In this document: positions 11,001-57,833 of the stretch, one piece after another | Position numbering within the stretch: position 1 is the first letter of the stretch | Layout: the number at the start of each line of letters is the position of its first letter | Source: an uncultured Rhizobium sp. | GTDB lineage: Bacteria > Pseudomonadota > Alphaproteobacteria > Rickettsiales > UBA1997 | Reading direction: 5' to 3' | Length of the DNA stretch: 64,000 nt | Assembly (NCBI GenBank): GCA_964444545.1 | Contig: CAYUHG010000003.1 | Span: 36,106 to 100,105 of the forward strand | Translations under genes and position numbers: made by a program | The notes under the pieces: model-generated | Seen by the model: the letters and a program-made list of their open reading frames with translations, nothing else | Databases searched by the model: none | Told to the model about the DNA's origin: nothing

Positions 11001-11086
11001 GTAAGTAAGATGTTGAATCTTTGGTTTGCGAGCTACAATAAGGCCGGACAAACTACCCTACCCGCAACACAAAAATCAATTTTAAA

Positions 11087-16314: not shown

Positions 16315-16317
16315 AAA

Positions 16318-36064: not shown

Positions 36065-36427
36065 TTATCTTTTTTCCATCAACTCTTCGTTGATGAATTC
36101 TACTACCAGCTGCAATTCACTTTTTACCTTTTGCATTAACGCATTTTTTTGTTCAGCTGTTTCTTCTGGATGATTTTGTGCATATTCCAAAACATTCGCC
36201 AACTCTAAGGCACCAATCGAAGCAGCTGCACCTTTAAAAGCGTGCGAAGACATATACCAAGAGTTGTCGTTTGCCACTTTTATTGCCTCTTGCATTTTTT
36301 CAATATTGCGATGGGCATTTTCAATAAAAATAGCGAATAATTCTTTCTCAAACTCGAAATCATTTTCAATGATGCTTCTTAGAAACTCTATATCGATAAC
36401 CTTTTTCGACTTTGAATCAGTAACCAT
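36065..36427 (-). CDS. Stand-alone histidine phosphotransfer (Hpt) protein
   Basis: 120 aa, four-helix pattern with the phospho-His motif SHAFKGAAASIGA. Confidence 0.8.
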   Translation of the reverse strand: MVTDSKSKKVIDIEFLRSIIENDFEFEKELFAIFIENAHRNIEKMQEAIKVANDNSWYMSSHAFKGAAASIGALELANVLEYAQNHPEETAEQKNALMQKVKSELQLVVEFINEELMEKR

Positions 36428-36924: not shown

Positions 36925-36951
36925 TATTGTTCTTAGGTCTTATCTGATGTC

Positions 36952-38957: not shown

Positions 38958-39692
38958 TTAAGACAGTTTAGCATGTATAGGAAATGTTCTGACATTATTG
39001 TATGTCTCGCCTTCTTGTCTTTGACGATTCATCACAATTTCCATTTCATATCCTAACTCTCTAAGAATTCTTCTGTAATCTCTACAAACTGCAGCAACAC
39101 CGACGGCGCAAATATAATTACATCCACGCTCTTTTGACATATTGATACCATGTTCAATAAGTACTTTAGAAACCGTTCTATCTCTTTCATTTCTTGCTAC
39201 AACAAAAGCAGAAACTTCGCTCAAAAGCAGATTCTCTCTTTTATCGTATTTTTGAACTATACTTAAATGCGTATAATCTTCTCCGACTGTATCATTTGAC
39301 AAAACATCACACTCTCCAGAAAACATTATTCTTGTGCCACCAATAACCTCATCACCTCTTACCGCAACAATAATATGACCAGCACGATCATATTTATTTT
39401 CAGAGCCATCATAACCCTGCCAACCATTCTCTCTGTTATAAGCTTCGTGACGCATTTGATAATATTGATCTAAAAGATTTTTGTCTTTTGTAGCAAAAAC
39501 TCGTACCTCTTTTTTTACTTCTTGAGAAGAGTCAACATCGTTACTATCAACGACTGATTCAATATTATTTTGCACTGATAATGGTGATTTATTTCTCAAT
39601 TGATCAACAAAACCAACTGAATGAAATTGATTGCTAATCTCGCGATCAACAGCTGCATCCATAGATTTTAACAATCTTGCTCTATCCTGCAT
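38958..39692 (-). CDS. GNAT-fold acyltransferase resembling LuxI / N-acyl amino acid synthase (FeeM-like) enzymes
   Basis: After a ~70-aa N-terminal extension: YYQMRHEAYNRENGWQGYDGSENKYDRAGHIIVAVRGDEVIGGTRI. This fits the R..(V/A)(F/Y)...GW...E.(D/N).YD...H.......(I/V)G..R pattern of autoinducer-synthase-like GNATs. Recognition from memory only. Confidence 0.45.
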   Translation of the reverse strand: MQDRARLLKSMDAAVDREISNQFHSVGFVDQLRNKSPLSVQNNIESVVDSNDVDSSQEVKKEVRVFATKDKNLLDQYYQMRHEAYNRENGWQGYDGSENKYDRAGHIIVAVRGDEVIGGTRIMFSGECDVLSNDTVGEDYTHLSIVQKYDKRENLLLSEVSAFVVARNERDRTVSKVLIEHGINMSKERGCNYICAVGVAAVCRDYRRILRELGYEMEIVMNRQRQEGETYNNVRTFPIHAKLS

Positions 39693-42852: not shown

Positions 42853-42892
42853 AAAAAAAGCCGCTGCAACTTTTCAGTTACAGCGGCTTTTA
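42853..42892. terminator. Bidirectional rho-independent terminator
   Basis: A-run, then stem gccgctgcaact (42860-42871) / agttacagcggc (42876-42887) with one mismatch, then tttt. Lies between the convergent hybrid kinase and FadL-like genes. Confidence 0.65.
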
Positions 42893-42918: not shown

Positions 42919-44139
42919 CTAAAATTCTTTTTTCAAAGCCAGCGAGAACACATCCACTTTGGTTTTGTAGTGAACGTTGATATCTTGAGTTGTACTGCCA
43001 TTTCCTTTCAAATTAGTAACGGCATTTCTGTAGAATTGATGTAAGTAAGTTGCGTCAACTGACAATGTTTTTGAGAATTTATAATTGAAACCAATTGAAG
43101 TCCAAACTTTGTCCGATGAAGGAACTGCCGGATTTCTGTTGGCATCAGTCATCGCTTCTTTTTCATAAGCCAAACCAGTTCTTAGCAACCATTTGTCGTT
43201 AAGTGTGAAATTGGCACCAACTGAATGTAAGAAAGAATCATGCCAGTTGAAAGATGAAGTCGCACTTAAGTTTGAATTTTGATAAGCATTAACTTGCAAA
43301 CTTTTCAAACGTGACCAACGCGTCCAAGTTAAATCATAAGCCAATTCAGTTGCCGGATTTAATTTGTAAGCTGTACCAATAGTTAAAGATTCTGGTGTCG
43401 AAGTTTTAGCCTGCATGTCCGAATATCCAAAGCCATGCGCTTGAACAGTTCCAACGATATTGTGATCGATTTTTGAACGATAACCAATACCAAATTTCAG
43501 ATTTTCTGTTGCCTGATATTTTGCACCCAAATTGAAACCATAACCCCAATCGCTACCTTGAACTTTAGTGTAATAAGTCGAAGCCGTGCTGCTAGTAAGT
43601 TGTGATCTATAATATTGCGCTTGGAAACCAGCACCCAAAGACAAATCTTTATTCACTTTATAAGAAACGCTTGGGTTGATGTTGATTGTTGTAATTGAAC
43701 TTGCGATCGCACGATCCAAACCTTGCCAATTATCAGTATATCTAGTTGCCAAACCAAATGGCGAAGTAATTGCTAAACCAAAAACCGCATCTTCGTTAAT
43801 TCTTTTCGCAACGTAAAGAGCTGGAACAACTCCATTTACACCGGCATCGTGAACGTTAGCAGTTTTTGAAGTTCCATCAGATTTGCTGCCGCCATTAGTA
43901 TTAATTTTTAAATCTAAATAGCTTGCCGACAAAACAAACTCACCATTCTCAACATCTGACAAAATAGCTGGGTTAAAAAACATATCGCTGACATCATGAA
44001 TACCAGTCACTGATCCGGCATAAGAGTTTGCCAAACCTGAAGTTGAAGTCAGTTCTGTAGAATAGCCAGCAGCCATAGCATCGCCACCAGCGATGACCAA
44101 AGCCAAAGACGTCACAAAAAGTTTTTTATTTAGTTTCAT
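42919..44139 (-). CDS. FadL/OMPP1/TodX family outer-membrane transporter for hydrophobic compounds
   Basis: Signal peptide, N-terminal hatch motif LANSYAGSVTGIHDVSDMFFNPA, an alternating beta-strand pattern, and C-terminal KKEF. Confidence 0.8.
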   Translation of the reverse strand: MKLNKKLFVTSLALVIAGGDAMAAGYSTELTSTSGLANSYAGSVTGIHDVSDMFFNPAILSDVENGEFVLSASYLDLKINTNGGSKSDGTSKTANVHDAGVNGVVPALYVAKRINEDAVFGLAITSPFGLATRYTDNWQGLDRAIASSITTININPSVSYKVNKDLSLGAGFQAQYYRSQLTSSTASTYYTKVQGSDWGYGFNLGAKYQATENLKFGIGYRSKIDHNIVGTVQAHGFGYSDMQAKTSTPESLTIGTAYKLNPATELAYDLTWTRWSRLKSLQVNAYQNSNLSATSSFNWHDSFLHSVGANFTLNDKWLLRTGLAYEKEAMTDANRNPAVPSSDKVWTSIGFNYKFSKTLSVDATYLHQFYRNAVTNLKGNGSTTQDINVHYKTKVDVFSLALKKEF

Positions 44140-44289: not shown

Positions 44290-46107
44290 CTAATGTGTTG
44301 TTGATTTAGTTAGATTCTTCGCAATCAGCTGCATCAAATAATCCGGCTCATCACCTTTGATAAAATAGTCGTTTATTGCAGAGTTTACACCACATTGATC
44401 ATCGTCACCACTAATTGCGATAATTGGGATCGCGTGCTTTTGATCAATTTTATTTTCCCTCTCCAAACTTCTAATTTCCGCTGCAACTTCATGACCATTT
44501 TTCAGCGGCATCGAAATATCAGTTAGAATCAAATCAAATTTTGATTCACCATTTTCGCTTAAATTATTTTTATAAATCTTCAGTAACTCATAACCGTTTC
44601 TGACCTTGGTAACATTCATGCCAAACGATGTCAGATTTGTTTCCATCGCAATCAAATTCAATTCGCGATCATCCGCAATCAACACTTCTTTTCCGCTTAA
44701 TAATTCGATTAAATCTGCACGAGATATTTTATTTTCTGGCAAAATTTCTGCTGGTTTTGAGCGAATATTTTTAACTTCAATTTGTGAAATTTGCGGAAAC
44801 AACAAACTAAATTTTGTCCAACCATTTTCTCTTTGGCCATTTTCTCTTTGGCCATTTTCTCTCCGGCTATTTTCACCTTCACCAAATTCTGATTCGCAAA
44901 TAATATCCCCACCAAATGCTTTCATATTGCGCCTACAAAATGCTAGCCCCAAGCCAGTTCCGCTTTTCTTTCCTGATGTATAAAAATCACCAAATAAATT
45001 TTCGATTTCTTGCGCAGCAATTCCCGGACCATTATCTTCAACGTAAATCACGTTATAGTTCTGACCCTTCAGAACTCTTTTTTCGATGCCGACTTTCACC
45101 ATCAAATTGGAAAATTGCGCATCGTAATAAAGTGAATTTTTCAAAAGATTATAAATGATGAATGACAGCCTGTCCGGCACAGCTTTGAAGAAAAAATCAT
45201 CCTGAGAATTTATCGATATCTTTACTTTTTTTCTTTCTTGCTGTTGTGCATAACCATATTGCTCAACAATCCGCGGCAAAATTTCACTCGCTCTTAAATA
45301 AGAAAATTCTGCAAAATTAATCGGTTTTTTCTGCAAGTCTGAGAGAGCAATATTAATAATTGCGTTGGCTTGTTTGATTGTGTCCGAAACCAACTGCATC
45401 GAATTTTCAATCTTAACAATATCAAAATTTTTAGAATTTTTGGCCTTCGATTTAACGTCCGAAATTGTTAAATTAATCGCATTCAAAGGATTACGCATTT
45501 CGTGAACTAGAGAAGCTGTAAGAGACAACATCTCACTATATAATTTTTCGATCGCCACCGCCCTGCCGCTATAATTAAAACACATGCCAACAAAGCCGCT
45601 GAAAACTATACAAATTAGATACGCTGAAACATCGAACTGCGGATGAAGATCAGAAAAATTTCCGCCACTAATCAAGAAAGCCAGAATCGCACCACCAACA
45701 CCAATCATTAAATCGATAAGATAAATCAACCAATTAGGCACACACAAAGCCAGCAACAAAACACCAAATATTTCCCAATAAAGCCAAACTTCGTGAAAGT
45801 TATTTTTCAGTAAATTGTAAGTGAAAACAAACGGCAAAGAATTGATCACCATCAAATGCCAATAAAATGGAAAATATTTTTCACGCAAGCGAGGCGACAA
45901 TAAATAATTTCCCGCCACACTAACACAAATTAGCGATGCCGCCAACCTTACATAAATATTTTCGTGAAGACCAAAAGCGTATTTATAAACAAAGTAAAAA
46001 ACAAAATGCGCAATCCCACCAGTCAAAGCAGCCGTAAGAATCGTCGGCTTACCAATCAAAGTTCCTTCTTGCCAGGCATTGATCAGAAACTGTTTTAGAT
46101 TCGACAC
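44290..46107 (-). CDS. Hybrid sensor kinase A: CqsS/LqsS-like multi-helix membrane sensor, kinase core, receiver
   Basis: GTG start. About 6 TM helices (YFPFYWHLMV, LPFVFTYNLLKNNFHEVWLYWE), H-box LVHEMRNPLNAI, IYNLLKNSLYY, GTGLGLAFCRRNMKAFGGDIICES, WTKFSLLFPQ, receiver LILTDISMP. The CqsS-likeness is judged from remembered motifs. Confidence 0.75.
   Translation of the reverse strand: MSNLKQFLINAWQEGTLIGKPTILTAALTGGIAHFVFYFVYKYAFGLHENIYVRLAASLICVSVAGNYLLSPRLREKYFPFYWHLMVINSLPFVFTYNLLKNNFHEVWLYWEIFGVLLLALCVPNWLIYLIDLMIGVGGAILAFLISGGNFSDLHPQFDVSAYLICIVFSGFVGMCFNYSGRAVAIEKLYSEMLSLTASLVHEMRNPLNAINLTISDVKSKAKNSKNFDIVKIENSMQLVSDTIKQANAIINIALSDLQKKPINFAEFSYLRASEILPRIVEQYGYAQQQERKKVKISINSQDDFFFKAVPDRLSFIIYNLLKNSLYYDAQFSNLMVKVGIEKRVLKGQNYNVIYVEDNGPGIAAQEIENLFGDFYTSGKKSGTGLGLAFCRRNMKAFGGDIICESEFGEGENSRRENGQRENGQRENGWTKFSLLFPQISQIEVKNIRSKPAEILPENKISRADLIELLSGKEVLIADDRELNLIAMETNLTSFGMNVTKVRNGYELLKIYKNNLSENGESKFDLILTDISMPLKNGHEVAAEIRSLERENKIDQKHAIPIIAISGDDDQCGVNSAINDYFIKGDEPDYLMQLIAKNLTKSTTH
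44823..44882 (-). repeat. In-frame 15-bp tandem repeat encoding (RENGQ)n inside kinase A
   Basis: On the + strand: ccattttctctttgg x2, ccattttctctccgg, then a degenerate unit. Protein reads GENSRRENGQRENGQRENGWTKF. Confidence 0.85.
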
Positions 46108-46223
46108 AGGAATTAAAATTTGGTTAAATTGAGATTGGGATGATGTGATTTATTACAAATGATTATCAACTTACGCAGTTCTTAAAATTTCACTTAAGCG
46201 CAACAGAAAACTAATTTTCAAAG

Positions 46224-47543
46224 ATGATCAATTTCGTAAAAAAAGCTTTTGCTGAAGGCACAAGTATAGAAAGATATAACATACTTGCCGCAGTTTTTTT
46301 AGGCTCACTTGCACATATGTCGCTGTGGTTTTTATACAGCTTTGTTTTTCCAATGAAGTTTGAGAGTTTTTATTTGAGATTATTTCTCTCAATTCTGTGC
46401 TCTGTAGCTTATTCTTACAAATATCTGCCACAAAAAATCAGAACTCACTATTTTCCAATTTATTGGCACTTCATGGTAATGATGGCTTTGCCTTGTCATT
46501 GCACGTTTCTTCTACTTATGAATGATTTTCATCCATCATATTTATATTGGGAAATTTTTTGTGTGGTCACCATGATAATTTATATACCACACTGGTTTGC
46601 TGCCCTGACAAATCTTTTTGTTTCTTTAGTTTTAGCAGTTGTTGCTTACTACATAATGTCTCCAGAACCATATTTGATAGGCCTTATTCATGGTTTTGAT
46701 TATGCGCCATATCTTTTGGTTTTTTCTTTTGCCACTTTTTCCAGTATGATTTTTTCTCATGCAAACAGAACTACCTGGCTGGAAAAACAACAAAAACAAC
46801 TAACCGCACTTGCCGGCTCGGTTGCTCATGAATTGCGCAATCCACTTGGCGTAATCAACTCGGCACAAACGCAAATCAATTTAGTTTCTCGCACTGTCAA
46901 ATCCGAAAATTTAGACAAGTTTAAAGACAAAATCCAAAACCTCGCGCACATCATCGCTGAATCTGTAGTTCAGGCCAACGACATCATCAACCTCACCTTG
47001 TCTGACGTTACGGGAAAAAAATTCAGCTCTGATCAAATTATCAACATCGACGCCAAAACTGTGATCAATGAAATAGTCGAGAAATTTGGTTACGAAAATT
47101 CTGAGCAAAAAAATATCATAAAAATAAAGATCGACTCCTCCAACAGCTTCAACTTCAAAGCCAACCATGAACGCTTCAGCTGCATCGCTTCCAACCTAAT
47201 CCAAAACTCTCTTTATTACCTCAAAGATTTTGCAAACCTTAACATCACAATCGGCACCGAGCAAAAAGATTTCTTAGGCCAAAAATACAACGTAATCTAC
47301 TTCCTAGACAACGGACCAGGAATCAAAACCGAAAACCTCAACAACATCTTCAATGACTTCTACACCGAAGGGAAAAATAACGGAACAGGGTTGGGTTTGT
47401 CTTTCTGTAAACGTAACATGAAAGCGTTTGGCGGAGACATCATCTGCGAATCACAATTCGGTAACGTATCAAACGGCAAAAGGGAAAATGGTTGGACGAA
47501 ATTTAGTTTGTTGTTTCCGCAAGTTTTTTATTCAACTCCATAA
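46224..47543 (+). CDS. Sensor kinase B: CqsS/LqsS-like membrane sensor and kinase core, no receiver
   Basis: N-terminal YNILAAVFLGSLAHMSLWFLYSFVFPMKFESFYLR, YFPIYWHFMV, LMNDFHPSYLYWE. H-box AGSVAHELRNPLGVI, GTGLGLSFCKRNMKAFGGDIICES, WTKFSLLFPQ. Confidence 0.75.
   Translation: MINFVKKAFAEGTSIERYNILAAVFLGSLAHMSLWFLYSFVFPMKFESFYLRLFLSILCSVAYSYKYLPQKIRTHYFPIYWHFMVMMALPCHCTFLLLMNDFHPSYLYWEIFCVVTMIIYIPHWFAALTNLFVSLVLAVVAYYIMSPEPYLIGLIHGFDYAPYLLVFSFATFSSMIFSHANRTTWLEKQQKQLTALAGSVAHELRNPLGVINSAQTQINLVSRTVKSENLDKFKDKIQNLAHIIAESVVQANDIINLTLSDVTGKKFSSDQIINIDAKTVINEIVEKFGYENSEQKNIIKIKIDSSNSFNFKANHERFSCIASNLIQNSLYYLKDFANLNITIGTEQKDFLGQKYNVIYFLDNGPGIKTENLNNIFNDFYTEGKNNGTGLGLSFCKRNMKAFGGDIICESQFGNVSNGKRENGWTKFSLLFPQVFYSTP
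46809..47526 (+). repeat. Copy 1 of a ~720-bp near-identical direct repeat (kinase core of B)
   Basis: Aligns colinearly with 52842-53574 at an offset of 6033 nt. By eye there is no difference over 46947-47317. The identical antisense ORFs in the track (46911-47168 and 52977-53201) confirm this. Confidence 0.85.
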
Positions 47544-47827
47544 ATCTCTTTTTGAAACACTGTTTGGAATATCTTGAAATCAGCCATTCTGGCAGTTGTG
47601 TTTTTTTGGGATAAGAATTTTTTAATCTAATCAGATTGGCGTCTTCTTTAGATTATTATAACTCAAAAACCCTCACTTCTAAAGTTAGATTCAGTCTTCA
47701 ACTAAATTGTCTAATACAAAGGCAATAAATTTTTACAGCACTTGCGATTTTCTAATTCAAGAGCTGTGAATTTCTTCAAATACACCTCAGAGTTAGCGTT
47801 TTTTTAAACTAAAAATGGGAACAAAAA

Positions 47828-48796
47828 ATGCAAATCGCAGCTCGTGTTGAATCAAATTACTGTGATCGTAATTTTGTACATAATTTAAGCAAAAATATAA
47901 AAAGTTTGAGCTTTTCTGAAATTTTTTTATTTGCTTTAAAACAGGCAAAAAAAGTCGAAATATCTGAGGTACTTAAAAAAATATGTGTTTCACCTCCATA
48001 TTTTGCATTTCAGGAAATCTATCGATACGAATCTTTTCTGATAGCTCCTATTACTCCACAACAAGTAATAGAGTTTGAAAGCACTCCAATGTCTTCCGCT
48101 GAAGCTGGTAGACACCTAGCAATATTGGGAAGCTGTTCTTTAGCTATTGATGAAGTTGAAAAAAATTATTATTTAGCTCACAAAGCTCTTAAAAAAATAG
48201 GATCTGATTTCAAAAACACTGAAAAACTATATGTTGTTGCCTGCCCTAGTTTATCAGAAAATGACAAGGGTTCGGCATCTTCTGCTTATACAGCTTTAGT
48301 TAATCAAAACGGAGACATAATATTTGAAATGGATATCCTATTCCAGAAAGTTTCAGTCAGACTTTTTAACAGAATATTCAAAGAGCATCTAAGAGAAACG
48401 CAATCTATTGACTACAATCCTTACGAGAAAGTTGTGCGTTTAATAAATATCACGGAGACTAATTCTGGAATCAAAGCTGAACTACCATTAATGAACGACT
48501 CAGAATGTTCTGGTCATTTTGATGGGGCTCCTATGTTACCAGTTGGAACTATGTCTTACATAATTACAAATCATATTGGTAATTTTCTTAGAAAGATTGA
48601 TGGACAATCAAATGGTAGATATTCATTAGTTAGTGCTGATTTAGAACTATTTGAACCAACAAATATAAGAAAAAGAGAATTCGTAGAAATAAATTATGGT
48701 GGAAAAATTGATAACGTTCACAATATCTCATGGGTTGTCAGAGGAGAATCCGGAAAAGAAAGAAATAGAATGCAGTTATTTTTTACCCATAAGTAA
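47828..48796 (+). CDS. Hypothetical protein with FabA/FabZ/AfsA-like hot-dog signature (possibly double hot-dog)
   Basis: GGGA lies 7 nt upstream of the ATG. The C-terminal half has CSGHFDGAPMLPVGTMSYIITNHIG (compare FabZ GHFPxxPVMPGV). The N-terminal half has AEAGRHLAILGSCSLAI. No other family recognised. Confidence 0.4.
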   Translation: MQIAARVESNYCDRNFVHNLSKNIKSLSFSEIFLFALKQAKKVEISEVLKKICVSPPYFAFQEIYRYESFLIAPITPQQVIEFESTPMSSAEAGRHLAILGSCSLAIDEVEKNYYLAHKALKKIGSDFKNTEKLYVVACPSLSENDKGSASSAYTALVNQNGDIIFEMDILFQKVSVRLFNRIFKEHLRETQSIDYNPYEKVVRLINITETNSGIKAELPLMNDSECSGHFDGAPMLPVGTMSYIITNHIGNFLRKIDGQSNGRYSLVSADLELFEPTNIRKREFVEINYGGKIDNVHNISWVVRGESGKERNRMQLFFTHK

Positions 48797-48823
48797 GTTT
48801 CGTTTTTTAGAGAGGAAATAAGG

Positions 48824-51439
48824 TTGTTGGTCGAAAAAATAGAGTACAATAAATATAATGTACTTGCTCTAGGGTTTCTTGCCACACTAGGACATCCTTC
48901 ATTTTGGATTATTTACACATACATTATTCCTCAAAAGTTTGAGAGTTTATATCTCAGAGGCTTTGGTTTTCTAAGCTGTCTAATCCTACTGCTTTTAGTT
49001 ACCTTCAAAAAGCATTTTGGCAGAGCTGAGATTTGTTACTGGATATTGTGTCTAGTATATAATCTCCCCTTCTTTTTCACAGTTACCCTAATAAACAATG
49101 ATTTTAGTGCTGTTTGGCTTGCGGCGGAAGTGGTGATGTTTGTTGTGATGATAATGGCTGTAGAAGGGTTATTAACGGCGATTTTTCTGATATTACTAGG
49201 AATAGTATCTGCTGTAGTTTTTTGTTCACAGTTTTATCCAGAAAATACGATATATCATCAAGTTATATTTGATATCATACCAATCTCTTTTTTTGGCATC
49301 GCAACTGCTGCAATATTCGGATATAGTAACGTCCAGGGTATGTCGATTAGCAAAGATGTAAAATATAAAAATGCCACCAACCTTCTTAAATCACTAGCTG
49401 GGTCAATTGCACATGAGATTAGGAATCCTCTCAATACAATAGATTTTGTTAGTTCACAGATGAATGATTTGCTAAAGAATGATCATAACTTAACGCAAGT
49501 AGAAGAAAAAATACTGTCTTTCAACTCTCAGATTTCAGATGCGGTCTCGAGCTCCAATAGGATCATAAATATGATACTAAGTGACTTGAGAGATTCTCCA
49601 ATTAGTGAACAAGATTTTTCTTATTTAAGTTCACAAGAAATTTTACATAAAATTATCAACAAATATGGCTATAAAACTACTGAAGAACGTAATAAAGTAA
49701 TATTTGATACATCTCTAACCGACAAAGGTTTTATCCTCCGAGTAGTAGAAGAACGCTTTACATTTGTAGTATACAATCTTCTCAAAAATGCACTTTACTA
49801 CTTAAAAGAATATCCAGATTCGACAGTTAGAATTGGTGCAGAATCTAAAGAAATAAATAATGTTATTTGGAATGTAATTTACATTCATGACACTGGTCCA
49901 GGAATTCCTAAAGATATAATTCCAAAACTATTTAATGACTTCTACACCTCTGGCAAAAAAGATGGAACAGGTCTCGGTTTGTCATTTTGTAAACGTAACA
50001 TGAAAGCATTTGGTGGCGACATCATCTGCGAATCAGAGCTTGGAAAATGGACTAAATTTAGTCTTTTATTTCCGAAGGTAGATCAGGATCTAATCAATCA
50101 AGAAGCCAATCAAATTTCTGACATAAACTCCGACGATAAAACGAAGAACAAACCATTCATCGCAATAGATAAAGATTCGGGAAAAACCAAAATTCTTTTG
50201 GTTGATGACGAGCAAACTAATCTTTTGATCACCAAGGCGATGATTGAAAAAAATCTCAATATTTTATGTGAGTTGGCTCATAGTGGAAAAGAGGCAATTG
50301 AGATTGAATCGCACCACATCGAGGATCATAAATTAATCATCACCGATATTCAGATGATGGAAACAAATGGAATTAGCGCTGCTAAAAATATCCGCGCTTT
50401 CAACAAAGAAATCCCGATTATTGCCCTTACCTCACTTGAATATGAAGATTTACAAAAAAACGATCACAATTATTTCAGCGATCATTTAAGCAAACCAGTG
50501 TCTGGGCATATTCTTTATCGAACTATTTCCAAATTTATTCCCGACTTAAAAGACAATATTGATTATCTAGGCGTTCCAGATCAGTACCTTCCTGACATCA
50601 AATCGAAGAAAATTTTGATCGTTGACGACCAAGAGCTGAATCTTTCGATTTTCTCGAAAAAAATGCAAAATCTTGGCATGGAAGTAACTAAAGCCACTGA
50701 TGGAAAAGAGATGGTGGAAGTATATCAAAATAGCTTAATTGAAGTCTTGGCAGAGGATGCTGAAAAAATCATTAAATCACAATTCGACATCATCGTAACT
50801 GACGTAAACATGCCAATCATGTCAGGAACTGATGGTGCAAAAAAAATTAGAGAAATCGAATCATCGAAAAACATTTCTTACAAAAATCGTATTCCAATTA
50901 TTGCTTTAAGTGGCGATGGCACTGAAGAAGACATAAAACATTTCTTCGAAGCCGGAATGAGCGACTATTTCATCAAAGGTTCGGACGTAAATAAGTTGAT
51001 CAAGATCATTACGATTTATCTCAATCCGGATAAGTCTTACAAAAGCTTGAATCACAAAAAAGAAGATGAAGATCTACACCATAAAATTGCTAACCAAATC
51101 AGTCATGAAGAAGACAATGACCAAATTCTTAATCAGGAAAAAATCATGCAATTCAGCAACGAAGATCGTCATGAGTTTCTGAAAATATTTTTAGAAGGCA
51201 GTCAAACTCAATTGAATAAGATTAAGCAAACTATTAGCGCTAACGACAATAAAGAGCTCTCTATCGCTTTACATGCTTTAAAAGGAATATCCGGCAACAT
51301 CGGCGCGGAGAGAGTATTCGCAGTGGTAACCAGAACTGATTATAATCTAAAAAATAACATCGCGGTTGGCGAAAATTGGTACGAAGAATTAAATACCGAA
51401 TATGAAAAGCTAAAATCGGAGATATCGAAGATTTTATAA
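48824..51439 (+). CDS. Hybrid sensor kinase C: CqsS/LqsS-like sensor, kinase core, two receivers, C-terminal Hpt
   Basis: TTG start with agagga 7 nt upstream. YNVLALGFLATLGHPSFWIIYTYIIPQKFESLYLR, AGSIAHEIRNPLNTI, GTGLGLSFCKRNMKAFGGDIICES, receivers LIITDIQM and IIVTDVNMP, Hpt motif LHALKGISGNIGA. Confidence 0.8.
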   Translation: MLVEKIEYNKYNVLALGFLATLGHPSFWIIYTYIIPQKFESLYLRGFGFLSCLILLLLVTFKKHFGRAEICYWILCLVYNLPFFFTVTLINNDFSAVWLAAEVVMFVVMIMAVEGLLTAIFLILLGIVSAVVFCSQFYPENTIYHQVIFDIIPISFFGIATAAIFGYSNVQGMSISKDVKYKNATNLLKSLAGSIAHEIRNPLNTIDFVSSQMNDLLKNDHNLTQVEEKILSFNSQISDAVSSSNRIINMILSDLRDSPISEQDFSYLSSQEILHKIINKYGYKTTEERNKVIFDTSLTDKGFILRVVEERFTFVVYNLLKNALYYLKEYPDSTVRIGAESKEINNVIWNVIYIHDTGPGIPKDIIPKLFNDFYTSGKKDGTGLGLSFCKRNMKAFGGDIICESELGKWTKFSLLFPKVDQDLINQEANQISDINSDDKTKNKPFIAIDKDSGKTKILLVDDEQTNLLITKAMIEKNLNILCELAHSGKEAIEIESHHIEDHKLIITDIQMMETNGISAAKNIRAFNKEIPIIALTSLEYEDLQKNDHNYFSDHLSKPVSGHILYRTISKFIPDLKDNIDYLGVPDQYLPDIKSKKILIVDDQELNLSIFSKKMQNLGMEVTKATDGKEMVEVYQNSLIEVLAEDAEKIIKSQFDIIVTDVNMPIMSGTDGAKKIREIESSKNISYKNRIPIIALSGDGTEEDIKHFFEAGMSDYFIKGSDVNKLIKIITIYLNPDKSYKSLNHKKEDEDLHHKIANQISHEEDNDQILNQEKIMQFSNEDRHEFLKIFLEGSQTQLNKIKQTISANDNKELSIALHALKGISGNIGAERVFAVVTRTDYNLKNNIAVGENWYEELNTEYEKLKSEISKIL

Positions 51440-51452
51440 TATTCCAAAACAA

Positions 51453-53579
51453 ATGTTCTCTGTCGTTCCAGCTGTCGTTGCTCTCTATTTTCTTCTTGTT
51501 GGGATTTTTGTAGTTCGGCAGAATCGAGGCAATCTTTTAGCTAAAACATTCTGTGCGATATGTGTGACTACTTTTAGTTGGCAGTTTGTTTGGTCCATTC
51601 TTTATCAAACTAAAAACCCTGAAAATGCTTATCTTTTAACTAAGATTGGTTGGATCTTTATACTTTTTTTACCTACTACAGCCTATCATTTTCTTATAAC
51701 CTTAAGTAACAAAAAATCTGAACTTAAGTTCGTTTATTTTTCTTATTTAGTCTCAGCACTTTTTCTATTCACCCTTCCTTCTGATTTAATGCTTGCTGGT
51801 GTTTATCAGTACTACTGGGGCTTTTATCCAAAAGCTGGAATACTACATCCCCTTCACGTTCTACAAACTGTTATTGTGGTGCTTAGAGGTTTATACGTAA
51901 CTTATCTGAAACAAAAAACATGCGATGATTACAAAACCAAATCACAATTACGATATTGTGTAGTCGCAATTTTCATATTCTTGATTGCCGCAATCGATTA
52001 TTTAGGAAATTATGGTCTAAATGTTTATCCATTCGGAATCGCTTTTCTCAGCACTTCGCTCACAATAATTTGCTACGCAATCGTACAACACCGCATCCTC
52101 GACTTAGATCGCGTTTTCATCCTTATCACAGCTCGAATCGTAATCTATTTATGTTTCTTAGGATTATTCGTGTGCTATGGATTTTTCTTTCTCGAAAATG
52201 ATGAATGGCAAAATTTCTATTTCTTCATTGCTGTCGCCGCAATTTTAGTATTGGTGTGCGAGACTTATTCCTACGTTATCCGCAGAGTCGAAAATCTTTT
52301 AAAAGTTATAATGATTCGACGTAAAGAAAGTGAAGATTGGAAAGATCTGCTGATTCGTCAATTAAATGAATCTTATTCTCTCGATCAGCTATATCACAAT
52401 ATGGAGTGGTTCTCGAAAAATGTTCTCGAAGTAAATCTAACCGGATTTTTTATCAGAAGTGATTTGCGCGGTAATGACAATTCGTCACATTATTTTGACT
52501 TGCTCAATCGCAATTATTTTGCTGGTTTTAGCCGAAGTTTTGCTAGCGAAGTACTTAAATCTAAAGCTCCAATTGAGAGAATTGATTACCCGAAAGAGTT
52601 AGAAGATCTAAAATCCAGCAAGGTTTTTGTACCTTTTATTCGCAATCAAGAAATCTCCGGATTTATGTTGGTTGATGCCAAAAAATCACTACAATTTCAA
52701 CACTACGAAATCTTTAATTTGTTGATTAGCCAAGTTGCTTTAACAGTTGATCGGATCTTGGCTTATCAAGAAATTTCACTGCAGAAACAAGAATTACAAA
52801 AGCAGGAATTTATTCGTGAAAAAGCCGAATCTTTAAGATCACTTGCTGGCTCAGTTGCTCATGAATTGCGCAATCCACTTGGTGTGATTAACTCGGCGCA
52901 GACGCAAATCAACTTGGTTTCTCGCAGTGTCAAATCCGAAAATTTAGACAAGTTTAAAGACAAAATCCAAAACCTCTCACACATCATCGCTGAATCTGTA
53001 GTTCAGGCCAACGACATCATCAACCTCACCTTGTCTGACGTTACGGGAAAAAAATTCAGCTCTGATCAAATTATCAACATCGACGCCAAAACTGTGATCA
53101 ATGAAATAGTCGAGAAATTTGGTTACGAAAATTCTGAGCAAAAAAATATCATAAAAATAAAGATCGACTCCTCCAACAGCTTCAACTTCAAAGCCAACCA
53201 TGAACGCTTCAGCTGCATCGCTTCCAACCTAATCCAAAACTCTCTTTATTACCTCAAAGATTTTGCAAACCTTAACATCACAATCGGCACCGAGCAAAAA
53301 GATTTCTTAGGCCAAAAATACAACGTAATCTACTTCCTAGACAACGGACCTGGAATCAAAACCGAAAACCTACAAAACATCTTCAATGACTTCTACACCG
53401 AAGGAAAAAACAACGGAACAGGACTGGGCTTGTCTTTCTGTAAACGTAACATGAAAGCCTTCGGCGGAGACATCATCTGCGAATCGCAACTCGGCAACGA
53501 AATAAATGGCCAAAGAGAAAATGGCCAAAGAGAAAATGGATGGACGAAATTTAGTTTGTTGTTTCCGCAAGTTTCATAA
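51453..53579 (+). CDS. Sensor kinase D: 7-TM (HisKA_7TM-like) sensor, uncharacterised linker domain, then a kinase core nearly identical to B
   Basis: The N-terminal ~280 aa form about 7 helices unrelated to the A/B/C/E sensors. Res ~290-450 are soluble (GAF/PAS-like?). From LAGSVAHELRNPLGVIN to the end it is nearly identical to kinase B. Confidence 0.8.
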   Translation: MFSVVPAVVALYFLLVGIFVVRQNRGNLLAKTFCAICVTTFSWQFVWSILYQTKNPENAYLLTKIGWIFILFLPTTAYHFLITLSNKKSELKFVYFSYLVSALFLFTLPSDLMLAGVYQYYWGFYPKAGILHPLHVLQTVIVVLRGLYVTYLKQKTCDDYKTKSQLRYCVVAIFIFLIAAIDYLGNYGLNVYPFGIAFLSTSLTIICYAIVQHRILDLDRVFILITARIVIYLCFLGLFVCYGFFFLENDEWQNFYFFIAVAAILVLVCETYSYVIRRVENLLKVIMIRRKESEDWKDLLIRQLNESYSLDQLYHNMEWFSKNVLEVNLTGFFIRSDLRGNDNSSHYFDLLNRNYFAGFSRSFASEVLKSKAPIERIDYPKELEDLKSSKVFVPFIRNQEISGFMLVDAKKSLQFQHYEIFNLLISQVALTVDRILAYQEISLQKQELQKQEFIREKAESLRSLAGSVAHELRNPLGVINSAQTQINLVSRSVKSENLDKFKDKIQNLSHIIAESVVQANDIINLTLSDVTGKKFSSDQIINIDAKTVINEIVEKFGYENSEQKNIIKIKIDSSNSFNFKANHERFSCIASNLIQNSLYYLKDFANLNITIGTEQKDFLGQKYNVIYFLDNGPGIKTENLQNIFNDFYTEGKNNGTGLGLSFCKRNMKAFGGDIICESQLGNEINGQRENGQRENGWTKFSLLFPQVS
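52842..53574 (+). repeat. Copy 2 of the ~720-bp near-identical direct repeat (kinase core of D)
   Basis: See 46809-47526. Contains one extra 15-bp unit relative to copy 1. Confidence 0.85.
53493..53540 (+). repeat. In-frame 15-bp tandem repeat in kinase D
   Basis: ggcaacgaaataaat (degenerate), then ggccaaagagaaaat x2 (53508-53537). Protein reads GNEINGQRENGQRENGWTKF. Confidence 0.8.
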
Positions 53580-53737
53580 GATATTAATAAAACCTCATTA
53601 CGAGAAGCACAGCCAGCCGGAAATCCAGTTTTAGATAGATTCTGGATTAACACGCTACGCTAACGATAACGAAGTGAATCGATATTTTTCATCGAATCAT
53701 AATCAAAAATTCGAGAACAATCATAAATATTACAAAC

Positions 53738-55567
53738 GTGTTTTTAGAGTACTTTGCGAACAAATTATCCAGCACCACTAAACTAGCAAAGTACAACATA
53801 ATAGCTCTTGGTGTAATAGGAACTTTTGGTCATCCATTGTACTGGGCGATATGGACTTATATTTTTCCTCAGCCATACGAAAATGTTTTTATAAGATTTT
53901 CTGCCGCAATTGCGTGCTTAGTTCTTTTATTGAACGAATATTTACCAGAAAGAACCAAAAGATATTTTCCAACCTATTGGTTTTGTGCTGTGATTTATGC
54001 ATTACCATTTTTGTTCACAGTGCATTTGATAAAGAATAATTTTTCGGACATCTGGATGATGTGCGAAGTTGGAATGGGTTTTATGGTTATTATATTCATT
54101 CCCGATGCATTATTGATGCTTTTAAATATTATACTGGGAGTAGTTCTGGCCATATGGTTTTGCAATATCTTCCCAGAAACATCTTCCGTAGTTTTAGAAA
54201 ATGGTGTCAGATTTTTTCCAGGAGATAAATATATTCCGATATGGACTTTTTTATTAGTTGCTGGCCCAGTTTTTAGTAACAGTGGAATCCTTGGCGCAAC
54301 ATATGAAAGGGCTAACAAAGTTCTAAGATATTCTTTAGCCATCGCCGGCTCAATCGCCCATGAATTACGTAATCCAATCAACACAATAAACTTAACTGGA
54401 ACACAGATTAAGAATTTGTTGAATCAAAGTTCTGATTTTAACAACAAAGAAAAAATCAGCTCTCTCACCGATCAAATTTCAGATTCAATTTCTGAGGCGA
54501 ATAACATCATCAATATTATCTTGAGCGATTTAAGCGAAAATCCGATTGATGACAAAGATTTTGTATTTTTACAGCCCAATTTGATAATTCCAAAAATAGT
54601 TCAGAACTACAGCTACAAGAATCAAGACGAGAAAAATTGCGTTCAACTTATCGTTAGTCCAAGTAATGATTTTACAATTAAAGCCGTTCCCGAGCGCTTC
54701 ACTTTTATCATCTATAATTTGCTCAAAAACGCTCTTTATTACTTGAATCAATATACTGATTTAAAAATCACAATTGGTGCCGAGGTCAGAGAAATCAAAG
54801 GAGTAAAATGGAATACAATTTACGTCCACGATACTGGCCCGGGAATTTCTCCAGAAATTATTTCGAAACTGTTTGATGATTTTTACACCAACAACAAAAA
54901 AGACGGAACCGGTTTGGGTTTGTCTTTTTGCAAACGCAACATGAAAGCGTTCGGCGGCGACATCATCTGCGAATCGCAATTCGGCAACGGAGCAAATTGT
55001 TGGACGAAATTTAGTTTATTGTTCCCACAAATTCAGCTTCCTACAGATCATAAATTTGACAATAAAATAACCCTTCAACCAACCAAAAACCCAAACAATT
55101 CAATGACTAATTTAAACACAAAAAATATTTCCGATTTTTCCGAGCTGCTCGCCAATAAAAAAATTCTTATTGCCGACGATCACGATCTCAGTCTTAAAAC
55201 GATGCAAGGTTGGTTAGAATGTTATGGCTGTGAAGTTTCTACAGCATTGAATGGCGAAGATTTAGTGCGCGCTTACAAAAACAATCTGGATCAAAATTAT
55301 AAATCAAATTTCGATCTGATTATTACTGATTTTTGTATGCCAATTAAAAATGGCGATGAAGTTGTTAGAGAAATTCGCGAACTGGAAAAGCAAAATAATG
55401 TTTCATCATGCAACGCCATTCCGATAATTGTTGTCAGCGGCAATGATGATAGAGAAACTATCAATACACTTCAAAAATTCCACTCTACCAAAAATTTCGT
55501 TAAAGGAGATAATTTAGAAAATCTTCTCGAAATTATCCTAGATCTTACAACGATCAGACAAATCTAA
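53738..55567 (+). CDS. Hybrid sensor kinase E: CqsS/LqsS-like sensor, kinase core, receiver
   Basis: GTG start. YNIIALGVIGTFGHPLYWAIWTYIFPQPYENVFIRF, YFPTYWFCAV, LPFLFTVHLIKNNFSDIWMMCE, AGSIAHELRNPINTI, GTGLGLSFCKRNMKAFGGDIICES, receiver LIITDFCMP. Confidence 0.8.
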   Translation: MFLEYFANKLSSTTKLAKYNIIALGVIGTFGHPLYWAIWTYIFPQPYENVFIRFSAAIACLVLLLNEYLPERTKRYFPTYWFCAVIYALPFLFTVHLIKNNFSDIWMMCEVGMGFMVIIFIPDALLMLLNIILGVVLAIWFCNIFPETSSVVLENGVRFFPGDKYIPIWTFLLVAGPVFSNSGILGATYERANKVLRYSLAIAGSIAHELRNPINTINLTGTQIKNLLNQSSDFNNKEKISSLTDQISDSISEANNIINIILSDLSENPIDDKDFVFLQPNLIIPKIVQNYSYKNQDEKNCVQLIVSPSNDFTIKAVPERFTFIIYNLLKNALYYLNQYTDLKITIGAEVREIKGVKWNTIYVHDTGPGISPEIISKLFDDFYTNNKKDGTGLGLSFCKRNMKAFGGDIICESQFGNGANCWTKFSLLFPQIQLPTDHKFDNKITLQPTKNPNNSMTNLNTKNISDFSELLANKKILIADDHDLSLKTMQGWLECYGCEVSTALNGEDLVRAYKNNLDQNYKSNFDLIITDFCMPIKNGDEVVREIRELEKQNNVSSCNAIPIIVVSGNDDRETINTLQKFHSTKNFVKGDNLENLLEIILDLTTIRQI

Positions 55568-55574
55568 AATCATC

Positions 55575-56942
55575 ATGAGAATGCTGGCAGCACAAGAATC
55601 TTGGCCATTTAGAAGCTATTTCATTTTTCTTATTCTCACCAGTTTTCTTGGAATTATTGCCTTAGGATTGGCAATTTTTTTGTTAGAAAAATCGGCTGCA
55701 ACTCCAGCAATTTTAGCCATCTATTTTGCTTTTTTCGTAATGGTTGGAACTTTTTTTACGGTTCTTTTCACCTTCAGAAAAAAAATATCGGAAGTAGCAA
55801 AAAAAGAACTGCTATTAAGTCAATTTTTACAAAGAAGTAATCTCTCTAAAACCACTTTTATCAAGTCTGCCAGCCATGATATTAAAAATTATGTATTCGG
55901 AATTTCTGGCCTACTTAAATTGATTTTACACAACAAAACTGAAGCAGAAATTAAAGCCAATGACGATCTAAAAATGATCGAAGCGCTGCAGCTTAAGTCG
56001 GAAGAATTAATGCGTTTTGTCGAAGATTTATTTGATACCAATCAAGATGAATGTGATGATCTAGATCCAAGCTACAGAAGGTTGTGTAACGTTATTGATC
56101 TAGCCCAAAGAATGGTGATTCTGAACAAAAATTTCGCCATGAAAAATCGAGTTAATTTGGAATTCGACAACAAAACCAATAACCAAATTGTTAAGGTTGA
56201 ATGTAACACCAAGCGCTTGAAACAAATTCTGCAAAATCTGATTCGTAACGCCATAAAATCTAGTGCCATCAATGACCTGGTAATCGTACAAATCTCGGCG
56301 ATTAATAATCATGTGCAAATTTCAGTAATCGATCAAGGCAACGGCAACAGCACAGATTCAATCAAAGATGCAAATTTAGATCAGCTCGATCCTCACAATT
56401 TGAGCTTTAATAACATGAGAAATTTGATCGAATCTTATCACGGCAAATTCGAGATAAATGCCGTAAAAGGTTATGGAACTGAAGTAAAAATTAATATTAT
56501 TGCGGCTCAAGATCACAACAGCTCTGAGCAAAAATTATACTCAGAAAATAGTATTGATAACAGCTTCGAAAACAAAGCAGTTCTGGTTGCAGAAGATAAT
56601 TTAATCACCAGTAAAGTTATAACTTTTCTGCTGCGCAAAATGGGTTTCAAAGTTAAGCATGTTGATAACGGCGCGGAAATTTTAGAACAACTCGACAATC
56701 AACATTTCGACCTAATTTTTCTCGACATCAATATGCCAAAACTTGGTGGATTTGAAACGGCTAAAACTATTCGCGAAGGCAAAGTTTTTAAGAGATTCAA
56801 AAATTACAACATTCCAATTATCGCAATCAGCACCGAGAAACAGCAGCTTTCTGACCTTAAAAATCACGGCATTAACATGATGCTTGGTAAACCATTTTCC
56901 GAAAAAGAGTTGATCGATTTTGTGATGGAATATGTGAAATAA
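55575..56942 (+). CDS. Hybrid kinase-like protein F: two TM helices, H-box, HATPase_c lacking a G2 box, receiver
   Basis: H-box FIKSASHDIKNYVFGISG, N-box LIRNAIKSS, G1 DQGNG. No GxGLGL-type G2 box is present; PHNLSFNNMRNLIESYHG sits in its place. The receiver has LIFLDINMP and LGKP. Confidence 0.7.
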   Translation: MRMLAAQESWPFRSYFIFLILTSFLGIIALGLAIFLLEKSAATPAILAIYFAFFVMVGTFFTVLFTFRKKISEVAKKELLLSQFLQRSNLSKTTFIKSASHDIKNYVFGISGLLKLILHNKTEAEIKANDDLKMIEALQLKSEELMRFVEDLFDTNQDECDDLDPSYRRLCNVIDLAQRMVILNKNFAMKNRVNLEFDNKTNNQIVKVECNTKRLKQILQNLIRNAIKSSAINDLVIVQISAINNHVQISVIDQGNGNSTDSIKDANLDQLDPHNLSFNNMRNLIESYHGKFEINAVKGYGTEVKINIIAAQDHNSSEQKLYSENSIDNSFENKAVLVAEDNLITSKVITFLLRKMGFKVKHVDNGAEILEQLDNQHFDLIFLDINMPKLGGFETAKTIREGKVFKRFKNYNIPIIAISTEKQQLSDLKNHGINMMLGKPFSEKELIDFVMEYVK

Positions 56943-56954: not shown

Positions 56955-57833
56955 ATGAAAACTTCACTACCAACGCAATCACAAATTCATCAAGAAGCCA
57001 TCCAAGAAATCGCTGATAATATTTTAAAAGCCGGAAAAGATAAAATTGCTTTCATAATTTTATTCGGAGCTTTCGCCCGTGGTAGCTGGATTAGCTATCG
57101 TTATACCGAAAATGATGCAGTTTACGAATATACTTCTGATTATGATTTTTTGATTATCACCAAAAGCGGAAAACAAGCCAACAGCAGCGCCGGATTTGAC
57201 TTGGAGAGGAAAATCAAAAAAGAAATCGATAACTCAACTAAGGTTAAAAAAACTCATCGCGTTCACATCATTATCGAGTCAATTAATCGCGTTAATGAGG
57301 AGTTGGAAAAGTCACAATATTTTTTCTCCAGCATTAAAGAAGAAGGAATTATGCTTTATAATTGTGGCGAATATCAGCTGTCTAATTCTGAAAGTTTAAA
57401 TTCAGAACAACGCATCAAGATTGCTCGCGAGACTTATCAACATTGGTTTGAAAGTGCTGATGGATTTTTGATCGATTACGAAAATGCACGATCACGCAAT
57501 GATTTCAAAAAGTCGGCTCTTTATTTGCATCAAGCAACTGAAAGTCTGTATAACTGTACTTTACTTACCCTTGGAGGGTATAAGCCAAAATCTCATGATC
57601 TTGAAGAATTAAATCAGCTTTGTGCTGTTTATTCGGAAGATTTTCTCACTCTTTTTCCCAAAGCCAGCTCAGAACAAAAACAATGTTTTTCGTTGCTACA
57701 AAAATCATATATTGGATCGCGATATAACAAAGATTTCCAAGTTACCAAACAACAACTCGAATATTTGTTTTGCCAGATCAAGAAACTGCAAACAGTTGTG
57801 AAGAAAATTTGTGAAGAACGAATTGGTGTGTGA
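56955..57833 (+). CDS. Fused nucleotidyltransferase (MNT-like) plus HEPN domain protein
   Basis: N-terminal NTase motif ILFGAFARGSW ... SDYDFLIIT (GxxxRG ... DxD). C-terminal HEPN-like ALYLHQATESLYNCTLLTLGGYKPKSHDLEEL and YIGSRYNKDF. Confidence 0.65.
   Translation: MKTSLPTQSQIHQEAIQEIADNILKAGKDKIAFIILFGAFARGSWISYRYTENDAVYEYTSDYDFLIITKSGKQANSSAGFDLERKIKKEIDNSTKVKKTHRVHIIIESINRVNEELEKSQYFFSSIKEEGIMLYNCGEYQLSNSESLNSEQRIKIARETYQHWFESADGFLIDYENARSRNDFKKSALYLHQATESLYNCTLLTLGGYKPKSHDLEELNQLCAVYSEDFLTLFPKASSEQKQCFSLLQKSYIGSRYNKDFQVTKQQLEYLFCQIKKLQTVVKKICEERIGV

Follow-up and report, generated by a model that had tools for sequence, protein, structure and literature searches.

We study an array of six sensor histidine kinase genes (A to F, positions 44290-56942) in a 64-kb stretch of contig CAYUHG010000003.1; the whole of this stretch is called the window, and the related contigs and loci that we compare with it carry L-numbers (L002, L012 and so on). 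Four of the kinases (A, B, C and E) are genuinely homologous to the quorum-sensing receptor CqsS, six-helix membrane sensor included, and the gene directly before kinase C, which we call X, encodes a protein with a predicted fatty-acyl enzyme fold. We find that this pairing of X with a CqsS-like kinase recurs in related genomes, and that in other relatives unrelated fatty-acyl enzymes stand where X does. We propose, with a probability of roughly 0.55, that the locus is a multi-input phosphorelay of the CqsS/LqsS family in which other fatty-acyl enzymes have taken over from the pyridoxal phosphate (PLP)-dependent CqsA/LqsA synthase. X probably makes or processes the signal of the kinases in place of the usual CqsA synthase. 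The features discussed are collected in Table 1.

Four kinases share the six-helix sensor of CqsS

Residues 1-440 of kinase E, used as a query, retrieve 1789 proteins, and the full-length matches (92-98% coverage) include many that JGI annotates as CqsS. The Vibrio protein P0115 matches this query at 31% identity over 96% coverage (E 2.8e-51), and its gene faces a 391-aa Aminotran_1_2 gene in convergent orientation, as is canonical for cqsA-cqsS; because of this adjoining cqsA we use P0115 as a validated CqsS reference. We then compare the N-terminal regions alone, stripped of the kinase core, with residues 1-175 of P0115 by BLASTP. The sensor of E matches with E 4.3e-24 (33.6% identity over 134 aa), that of A with 6.2e-13, that of C with 1.5e-12 and that of B with 3.2e-7, and the sensor of kinase D gives no match. 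The original prediction, made from the letters of the DNA, had called the N termini of A, B, C and E CqsS/LqsS-like; since the similarity is significant without the kinase core, this assignment stands.

An AlphaFold model of kinase E residues 1-215 (pLDDT 92, pTM 0.83) consists of six long helices (18-42, 50-64, 77-99, 104-120, 124-144 and 163-211, the last continuous with the H-box helix), with a longest loop of 18 residues and no periplasmic domain. The hydrophobic helices without a large periplasmic loop that had been predicted for all four sensors are thus confirmed for E, and A, B and C align collinearly with it. A Kyte-Doolittle scan for transmembrane (TM) segments under-called these helices, and the AF2 model is used in its place. 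Foldseek finds no analogue of the sensor model in the PDB (best E 0.37), and to our knowledge no structure of a CqsS-type sensor has been solved. The CqsS sensor has been described as six TM helices with short loops and no periplasmic domain, in which motifs of TM1-3 form a ligand-binding and transduction core common to alpha-hydroxyketone sensors, and roles have been assigned to the residues that set specificity (PMC3376566).

We find these TM1-3 motifs (PQ.YEN, R, LPFFF and N.[FW]S) conserved, with E42, R47, L83, P84 and N94 (P0115 numbering) invariant among the Vibrio, window and related sensors. One specificity position differs. At the position equivalent to V. cholerae S107, kinases E, C, A and B have C, A, W and W, each followed by a clade-specific Glu; W104 is kept in A, C and E and is Y in B, and the TM6 region (V. 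cholerae F160/F162/F166/C170) aligns with gaps in the window sensors. The kinase of L178, which is linked to a CqsA, retains the W...S pair. The altered S107 position argues for a different ligand, not against homology. Among themselves the four window sensors are 28-38% identical.

Kinase cores and the relay

The same ORFs and coordinates emerge from our annotation as from the original prediction, six kinase genes interrupted by a single non-kinase ORF, and Pfam places HisKA/HATPase_c in all six. The three architectures named there are present: B is a plain histidine kinase (HK), A and E are HK-REC, and C is HK-REC-REC-Hpt. The His and Asp that accept phosphate are intact, as are the ATP-binding boxes, and the conserved REC Asp is present in A, C (in both domains) and E. 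The shared sensor and core motifs listed in that prediction fare less well as literally written, each fitting two or three of the paralogs; relaxed forms (HE.RNP, D.GPG, GTGLGL.FC[KR]RNMKAFGGDIICES and WTKFSLLFP) occur in all of A-E and in F not at all. Among NCBIfam models the core is nearest to the Vibrio quorum-sensing kinase LuxN.

The protein cores of A-E are 46-58% identical, with the exception of B and D at 95%. At the DNA level these two cores agree at 93.5% over 735 nt (46807-47526 against 52840-53574), which we attribute to a recent event of gene conversion or duplication that involved a CqsS-type and a seven-TM (7TM)-type kinase. Directly before WTKF we also observe 15-nt tandem repeats encoding (Q)RENG, with 3.5 copies in A (44822-44874), 2.4 copies in D (53504-53539) and one unit in B; they form a length-variable loop of the ATP-binding domain.

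For the onward relay, the window holds two Hpt domains, one at the C terminus of kinase C and one stand-alone, 3.5 kb upstream of a seventh kinase, G. The stand-alone Hpt is likely a shared relay for the hybrid kinases. Across the 64 kb every REC domain belongs to one of the kinases A, C, E, F and G and none to a stand-alone response regulator, and the lack of an output regulator that had been predicted holds for both LuxO-like and LqsR-like genes. The lack of a CqsA/LqsA-type synthase claimed in the original prediction likewise holds within the 64-kb window, where a tblastn search with a validated Vibrio CqsA gives a best E of 2.4.

The X protein is a double hotdog with a FabZ-like half

The original prediction had listed X, correctly, as the one non-kinase ORF of the array, and had missed that it is the most informative gene of the locus. 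X finds no match at threshold in Pfam or NCBIfam; with X below every curated family threshold, we treat it as a separate, unnamed family. Its AF2 model (pLDDT 91.8, pTM 0.90) is a double hotdog, and the best Foldseek matches in the PDB are dehydratases (DH) of fatty-acid and polyketide synthases (PKS), the thioesterases TesB and FatA, and LnmK (probability 1.0, TM score 0.45-0.66); the same search against viral structures was uninformative. An hhalign comparison shows homology between the two halves of X (E 1.3e-5). Searched against PDB sequences, the profile of the family recovers FabZ over the C-terminal hotdog (E 8.9e-8), with the catalytic His of the GHF..P..P motif aligned with H230.

Across 79 family sequences E92, R95 and H96 are invariant and H230 is conserved in at least 90%. 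The E92-x2-R95-H96 group opens the central helix of hotdog 1, where, in a weak alignment of the N-terminal half, E92 is offset by about one residue from the Glu of FabZ. On the model, these residues would compose one FabZ-like His/acid site spanning the pseudo-dimer. X has neither a signal peptide nor a TM segment, and is therefore expected to act in the cytoplasm rather than where an incoming signal first arrives. Compared with a 91%-identical ortholog, the ratio of nonsynonymous to synonymous substitution (dN/dS) is 0.08 at a dS of 0.51, which indicates purifying selection.

A word search returns 81 homologs of X, all annotated as 'hypothetical', and an exhaustive search of 1.84 billion sequences gives about 750 representatives. 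These are stand-alone proteins of about 300 aa, and the best 150 of them include no fusions. Distant homologs, at 25-35% identity, come from Myxococcota, Promicromonospora, Pseudomonas and Bacteroidota, among other groups.

X is coupled to a CqsS-like kinase in six lineages

In all six lineages examined, homologs of X that are 36-91% identical to it share the strand of a CqsS-like HK-REC-REC(-Hpt) gene and immediately precede it. The gap between the two genes is 27 nt in the window and L101, 68 nt in L018 (a metagenome-assembled genome, MAG, named 'Rickettsiaceae bacterium', where the homology of X has an hhalign probability of 100%), 2 nt in L183 and 0 nt in L185 (in both of which the sensor was confirmed by a local HMM); in L012 the genes overlap by 8 nt, and in L013/L014 X overlaps a split sensor ORF by 8 nt. 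The X family is also found with another kind of receptor. At nine Marinilabiliales-type loci in Saccharicrinis/Marinilabiliaceae genomes (L026, L030, L031, L034, L037, L038, L039, L048 and L083), X lies -12 to +17 nt before, and is translationally coupled to, a gene for a methyl-accepting chemotaxis protein (MCP) of about 370 aa that consists of membrane helices, HAMP and the signalling domain alone. In a further MAG (L080) X overlaps a multi-TM kinase.

When we cluster the neighbours of 79 distant X homologs, no universal partner appears, a result blurred by spurious ORFs in high-GC genomes; under a stricter neighbour test the MCP pairing and a few kinase pairings survive. An apparent myxobacterial pattern, with a histidine kinase at -2/-3, was dropped as probable chance in kinase-rich genomes.

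Could X be a housekeeping or accessory fatty-acid enzyme that shares an operon with kinase C by chance? The frequent occurrence of distant homologs as stand-alone genes, and the lack of fusions noted above, speak for such an incidental neighbourhood. We hold it to be very improbable, because six lineages keep the adjacency with an X that has diverged to 36-58% identity and with different flanking genes, because the coupling to MCPs in Bacteroidota is independent, and because X is not FabZ or FabA.

Different fatty-acyl enzymes occupy the position of X

Scanning metagenomes with a kinase alignment gives 79 loci, which we annotate with local HMMs and place on a rough neighbour-joining (NJ) tree of 77 sensor-plus-core sequences. 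Window kinases A, B, C and E fall with kinases of Rickettsiales MAGs in a low-GC clade in which none of about 30 members has a CqsA neighbour. Kinases linked to CqsA, those of Vibrio, L120 and L178 among them, fall into sister clades, and in a high-GC clade the gene immediately upstream of the kinase encodes a FabH-like ketosynthase.

The closest view of the slot comes from L012, whose PheT is 75% identical to that of the window and where the same chromosomal slot, between the pheT/ATP-synthase genes and HAD/ferredoxin/ccmC/hisS, holds a minimal cassette of a G-like kinase, FadL, an X homolog, one CqsS-like HK-REC-REC and an Hpt. The window array is an expansion of this type of cassette. Elsewhere within the window's clade the X position is filled differently. 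It is taken by a thioester reductase (NAD_binding_4/TIGR01746) in L105 and L116 and by an S-adenosylmethionine (SAM) methyltransferase (LCM/TIGR00027) in L121, each 12-33 nt upstream of a CqsS-like HK-REC-REC-Hpt kinase; in L105 the reductase lies exactly between a B-like and a C-like kinase, with a D-like 7TM kinase next. Two Rickettsiales MAGs (L017 and L181) have a FabH-like ketosynthase III in the X position, and high-GC metagenome contigs (L111, L118, L119, L124, L126 and L170) have one directly upstream of their CqsS-like kinases. A FabH-like ketosynthase with a CqsS-like kinase is apparently a second, undescribed synthase-receptor pairing. The reductase, methyltransferase and ketosynthase are all of types that act on fatty-acyl thioesters. 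Such a pattern would be expected of a synthase position.

Gene neighbourhoods elsewhere in the cassette are also shared. The ortholog of kinase G adjoins the FadL-X-kinase-Hpt cassette in L012 (E 1e-233), where the stand-alone Hpt is in the same syntenic slot as well; Hpt orthologs (E ~5e-48) directly adjoin CqsS-like kinases there and in L108. FadL homologs adjoin CqsS-like kinases in L012, L104, L108, L112, L115 and L121, orthologs of the 7TM kinase D come after C-like kinases in L101 and L105, and an ortholog of kinase F comes after that of E in L100.

Two further features of related loci are recorded here. In L102, L104, L106, L110 and L115 the kinase is preceded, at a distance of about 400 nt, by a conserved divergent gene of about 397 aa; this gene has no Pfam match and a weak match to a long-chain acyl-ACP (acyl carrier protein) reductase (E 1e-4). 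L002, the same locus from another metagenome, shows full identity to the window as far as the 3' end of D, and there a different 439-aa CqsS-like paralog with a D-like C terminus replaces E, which reflects either strain-level shuffling of cassettes at a conserved core or an assembly chimera.

The nearest named homologs of the kinase E query are proteins of Rickettsiaceae and Rickettsiales MAGs, and related contigs encode ankyrin-repeat proteins. From these sequences the carrier is plausibly a host-associated alphaproteobacterium, probably of the Rickettsiales.

Table 1. Features of the signalling region of the window, other genes of the window mentioned in the text, and genes of related loci (named by L-number, with their own coordinates)
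Feature	Coordinates	Strand	Length	Properties
Large ORF	6887-8962	(-)	691 aa	Adjoins the next ORF
Large ORF	8937-11051	(-)	704 aa
Stand-alone Hpt	36065-36427	(-)	120 aa	Pfam Hpt 4e-7; weak NCBIfam LuxU match 9e-4
YfiR/HmsC-like periplasmic protein and TonB-dependent receptor	36439-38934	(-)		Between stand-alone Hpt and GNAT-like ORF
GNAT-like ORF	38958-39692	(-)	244 aa	Between TonB-dependent receptor and kinase G
Kinase G	39960-42830	(+)	956 aa	Hybrid; weak dCache, HisKA, HATPase_c, two REC matches (one weak); BarA/LuxQ-like
Terminator-like hairpin	42856-42891	(-)		16-bp stem and T-run; closes the A-FadL transcription unit
FadL/TodX-family outer-membrane channel	42919-44139	(-)		Pfam Toluene_X 2e-80; 150 nt downstream of kinase A, same strand
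Kinase A	44290-46107	(-)	605 aa	CqsS-like six-helix membrane sensor, HisKA/HATPase_c, REC (Pfam)
Kinase B	46224-47543	(+)	439 aa	CqsS-like sensor, HisKA/HATPase_c, no REC (Pfam)
X	47828-48796	(+)	322 aa	Cytoplasmic double hotdog, FabZ-like C-terminal half; candidate signal synthase or processing enzyme
Kinase C	48824-51439	(+)	871 aa	CqsS-like sensor, kinase core, REC, REC, Hpt
Kinase D	51453-53579	(+)	708 aa	HisKA_7TM (PF16927, 1e-7) sensor, cytoplasmic linker of ~200 aa, kinase core; no REC
Kinase E	53738-55567	(+)	609 aa	Most CqsS-like sensor of the array (FPQPYEN motif), kinase core, REC
Kinase F	55575-56942	(+)	455 aa	Two TM helices, unrelated kinase core, REC
Fused nucleotidyltransferase-HEPN protein	56955-57833	(+)		Begins 12 nt past kinase F
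L017, FabH-like ketosynthase III	8760-9842			In X position; Rickettsiales MAG
L181, FabH-like ketosynthase III	10284-11327			In X position; Rickettsiales MAG; gap to kinase 2 nt
L105, thioester reductase	2594-3889			In X position
L116, thioester reductase	6727-7941			In X position
L121, SAM methyltransferase	2442-3875			In X position; FadL upstream
L104, divergent gene of ~397 aa	6362-7555	(-)
L002, CqsS-like paralog	15771-17090		439 aa	In place of E

Layout of the window locus

Through the array from A to F the gaps between genes are 116, 284, 27, 13, 158 and 7 nt. The FadL channel is in an operon with kinase A. This channel, kinase G and the stand-alone Hpt are additions to the original prediction. 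Kinase G scores 2e-127 against the NCBIfam model of BarA and 2e-91 against that of LuxQ, both below cut-off.

Of the neighbouring genes, the nucleotidyltransferase-HEPN protein has homologs that adjoin kinase arrays in L100 and L104, and the YfiR/HmsC-like and TonB genes fall within the slot that in L012 is occupied by the signalling cassette alone. The GNAT-like ORF was considered as an alternative synthase and set aside, as it is found in no related locus. It is weakly LuxI/N-acyl-amino-acid-synthase-like, with weak matches to the acyl-homoserine-lactone synthase BjaI (PDB, E 0.004), TIGR03694 acyltransferases (1.2e-5) and GNAT (6e-4), and on this similarity could be another lipid-signal enzyme. 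The two large adjoining ORFs far upstream have no Pfam match at E 1e-8 or better, and Rfam and tRNA scans of the window were empty.

Points against the reading, and what else the locus could be

Several observations weigh against the proposal that enzymes such as X have taken the place of CqsA. Kinases A, B and E have no adjoining enzyme. Most of the distant homologs of X (in Pseudomonas, Promicromonospora and most myxobacteria) have no adjoining sensor, so the X family is not exclusively linked to signalling. The activity of X is a predicted one: weak FabA matches, below threshold, occur in just 8 of 79 family members, X itself has none at the Pfam gathering score, the acid that would partner H230 is a putative one, and a lone dehydratase or thioesterase would make a minimal 'synthase'. 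Quorum sensing is not self-evident in an obligately intracellular bacterium. Finally, low-GC contigs rich in ankyrin repeats (L178/L179 and L180) carry a conserved, canonical cqsA-cqsS-like pair beside uppP, a dnaE-like fragment and recR. L178/L179 come from the same metagenome series as the window, and the tetranucleotide signature of L178 correlates with that of the window at r = 0.987, as close as the window's own halves. A cqsA elsewhere in the genome of the window organism is possible.

This last group of observations, the syntenic pair beside uppP/recR and the similar tetranucleotide usage, favours an ordinary Cqs/Lqs system with extra paralogs, in which a cqsA/lqsA and a regulator would lie elsewhere, the array would sense alpha-hydroxyketones and X would be an unrelated lipid enzyme. 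Sensor helices 1-3 also retain the motifs that are said to bind features shared by all alpha-hydroxyketones (PMC3376566). We nevertheless judge an ordinary system to be distinctly unlikely. In the rough NJ tree none of the about 30 members of the window's clade adjoins a CqsA, and the kinases that do are in its sister clades. At the S107 head-group position all four paralogs carry another residue, and the CqsA-linked L178 kinase keeps the Ser. The CqsA and DnaA clusters of L178 occur on 2-3 contigs against 12-16 for the window proteins, from which L178 is probably a different, rarer organism. Even with a cqsA elsewhere, the pairings of X, FabH-like and reductase genes with kinases would call for explanation.

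Another possibility is that the array is 'all ears', a set of orphan receptors for lipids of other organisms or of a eukaryotic host, with FadL importing these lipids and X trimming, activating, inactivating or quenching them. Receptor-only Lqs configurations and an orphan LqsT are documented in Legionella (PMC8023197), and absence of a synthase is therefore not new by itself. Three of the four CqsS-like paralogs stand without an enzyme, FadL, an uptake channel, is the commonest neighbour in the clade, the ankyrin-repeat proteins of related contigs are typical of intracellular bacteria, and the low mutual identity of the sensors suggests different ligands. What makes us regard pure listening as rather unlikely is, first, that a tight and often translationally coupled X-kinase pair, kept in six lineages, is the classic synthase-receptor arrangement; second, that relatives fill the slot with varied enzymes of biosynthetic type (ketosynthase, thioester reductase, methyltransferase and CqsA); and third, that X, being apparently cytoplasmic, would be away from the point at which such a signal arrives.

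A proposed signalling route and its wider meaning

Under the replacement reading, the circuit could run as follows. The substrate of X in the cytoplasm would be a fatty-acyl thioester, in the simplest case 3-hydroxyacyl-ACP or -CoA from fatty-acid metabolism, which X would convert to a hydrophobic signal such as an unsaturated fatty acid or a derivative. The signal would leave the cell, re-enter across the outer membrane through the FadL channel, partition into the inner membrane and be bound within the helix bundle of kinase C, perhaps also in those of its paralogs. Binding would shift the balance of kinase and phosphatase activity as in CqsS, and phosphate would pass from His to Asp (REC) to Hpt and would end on a response regulator whose gene lies beyond the 64 kb. 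Other cues would come into the same relay through the paralogs A, B and E, through the 7TM kinase D and through the Cache kinase G, comparable to the inputs from LuxN, LuxQ and CqsS in Vibrio. That X makes rather than modifies the ligand, the chemistry of that ligand, the role of FadL in its passage and the convergence of all kinases on the Hpt are the steps that we infer.

The receptors are new members of a known family; what is new is their partner enzymes and their tandem expansion. The wiring had been predicted to be undescribed, and we found no paper in the searchable literature that joins CqsS with Rickettsiales taxa, FabH or hotdog enzymes. As far as we know, alpha-hydroxyketone signalling has been confined to Vibrio, Legionella and a few environmental proteobacteria, where it invariably takes the form of a CqsA/LqsA-receptor pair or of orphan receptors, and we are not aware of cell-cell signalling in Rickettsiales. 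Here a probable Rickettsiales lineage shows the receptor family expanded into a tandem of at least four paralogs, and unrelated fatty-acyl enzymes trade places at the synthase position across relatives. If the slot enzymes make the ligands, each swap would represent a new lipid autoinducer chemistry with its receptor already in hand. The locus also offers a first functional lead for the unnamed double-hotdog family, and it points to FadL channels as regular components of circuits for hydrophobic signals.

A broader generalization, which we advance tentatively and would put at somewhat less than even odds, is that CqsS-type six-helix sensors are a general platform for detecting fatty-acid-derived signals in the membrane, with an exchangeable synthase for which the candidates are CqsA, FabH-like ketosynthase, thioester reductase, SAM methyltransferase and the double hotdog X. 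X would then found a new family of autoinducer synthases and an undescribed class of signal, read by CqsS-like kinases in Rickettsiales and by membrane-only chemoreceptors in Marinilabiliales, and the array would be a multi-channel decoder of lipid signals in an intracellular bacterium.

Comparison with known systems

The nearest relative is the CqsA-CqsS-LuxU-LuxO system of Vibrio cholerae and V. harveyi (signal CAI-1), with which the window shares a homologous six-helix sensor, a homologous kinase core (motifs AHE.RNPL, LLKNA.YY, GLGL.FC...FGG and WT.F), hybrid HK-REC kinases, a probable Hpt relay, and the proposed arrangement of several hybrid kinases around one relay. It differs in that no kinase of the window's clade has a CqsA beside it, the place being taken by the FabZ-like double hotdog or, in relatives, by a reductase, methyltransferase or ketosynthase. 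The window moreover has four tandem CqsS-like paralogs rather than one, an Hpt fused to kinase C, a FadL in the operon and a changed S107 head-group position, and it contains no LuxO-type regulator.

The LqsA-LqsR-HdeD-LqsS system of Legionella pneumophila, with its orphan LqsT (signal LAI-1), uses the same receptor family with more than one paralogous sensor per genome. LqsS and LqsT lack a receiver, as does kinase B. Unlike the Legionella system, the window has no lqsA, lqsR or hdeD, its paralogs are clustered and not dispersed, and its candidate synthase is a different one. The intracellular life style of the carrier, plausible for the window organism, is a further likeness, and receptor-only genomes are known in Legionella (PMC8023197).

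Two other systems resemble the window by analogy. In diffusible signal factor (DSF) signalling of Xanthomonas and Burkholderia, RpfF dehydrates and hydrolyses 3-hydroxyacyl-ACP to a cis-2-enoic acid, which is sensed by RpfC, a multi-TM hybrid kinase with fused REC-Hpt. The likeness is purely functional, as RpfF is a crotonase and not a hotdog protein and the RpfC sensor is unrelated to that of CqsS. In the PhcB-PhcS system of Ralstonia, a SAM methyltransferase makes a fatty-acid-derived signal, a methyl 3-hydroxy fatty acid, that is sensed by a membrane histidine kinase. The TIGR00027/LCM methyltransferase in the X slot of L121 recalls this arrangement; the window itself has no such methyltransferase.

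At the level of the enzyme, X shares its fold with FabZ/FabA, PKS DH domains, TesB and FatA, and its C-terminal half aligns to FabZ with the catalytic His of GHF..P..P. X is set apart from these by being a fused pseudo-dimer (322 aa) and by its distance from every solved structure, at about 10% identity; its first hotdog lacks the His and carries an invariant AEAGRHLAILG.

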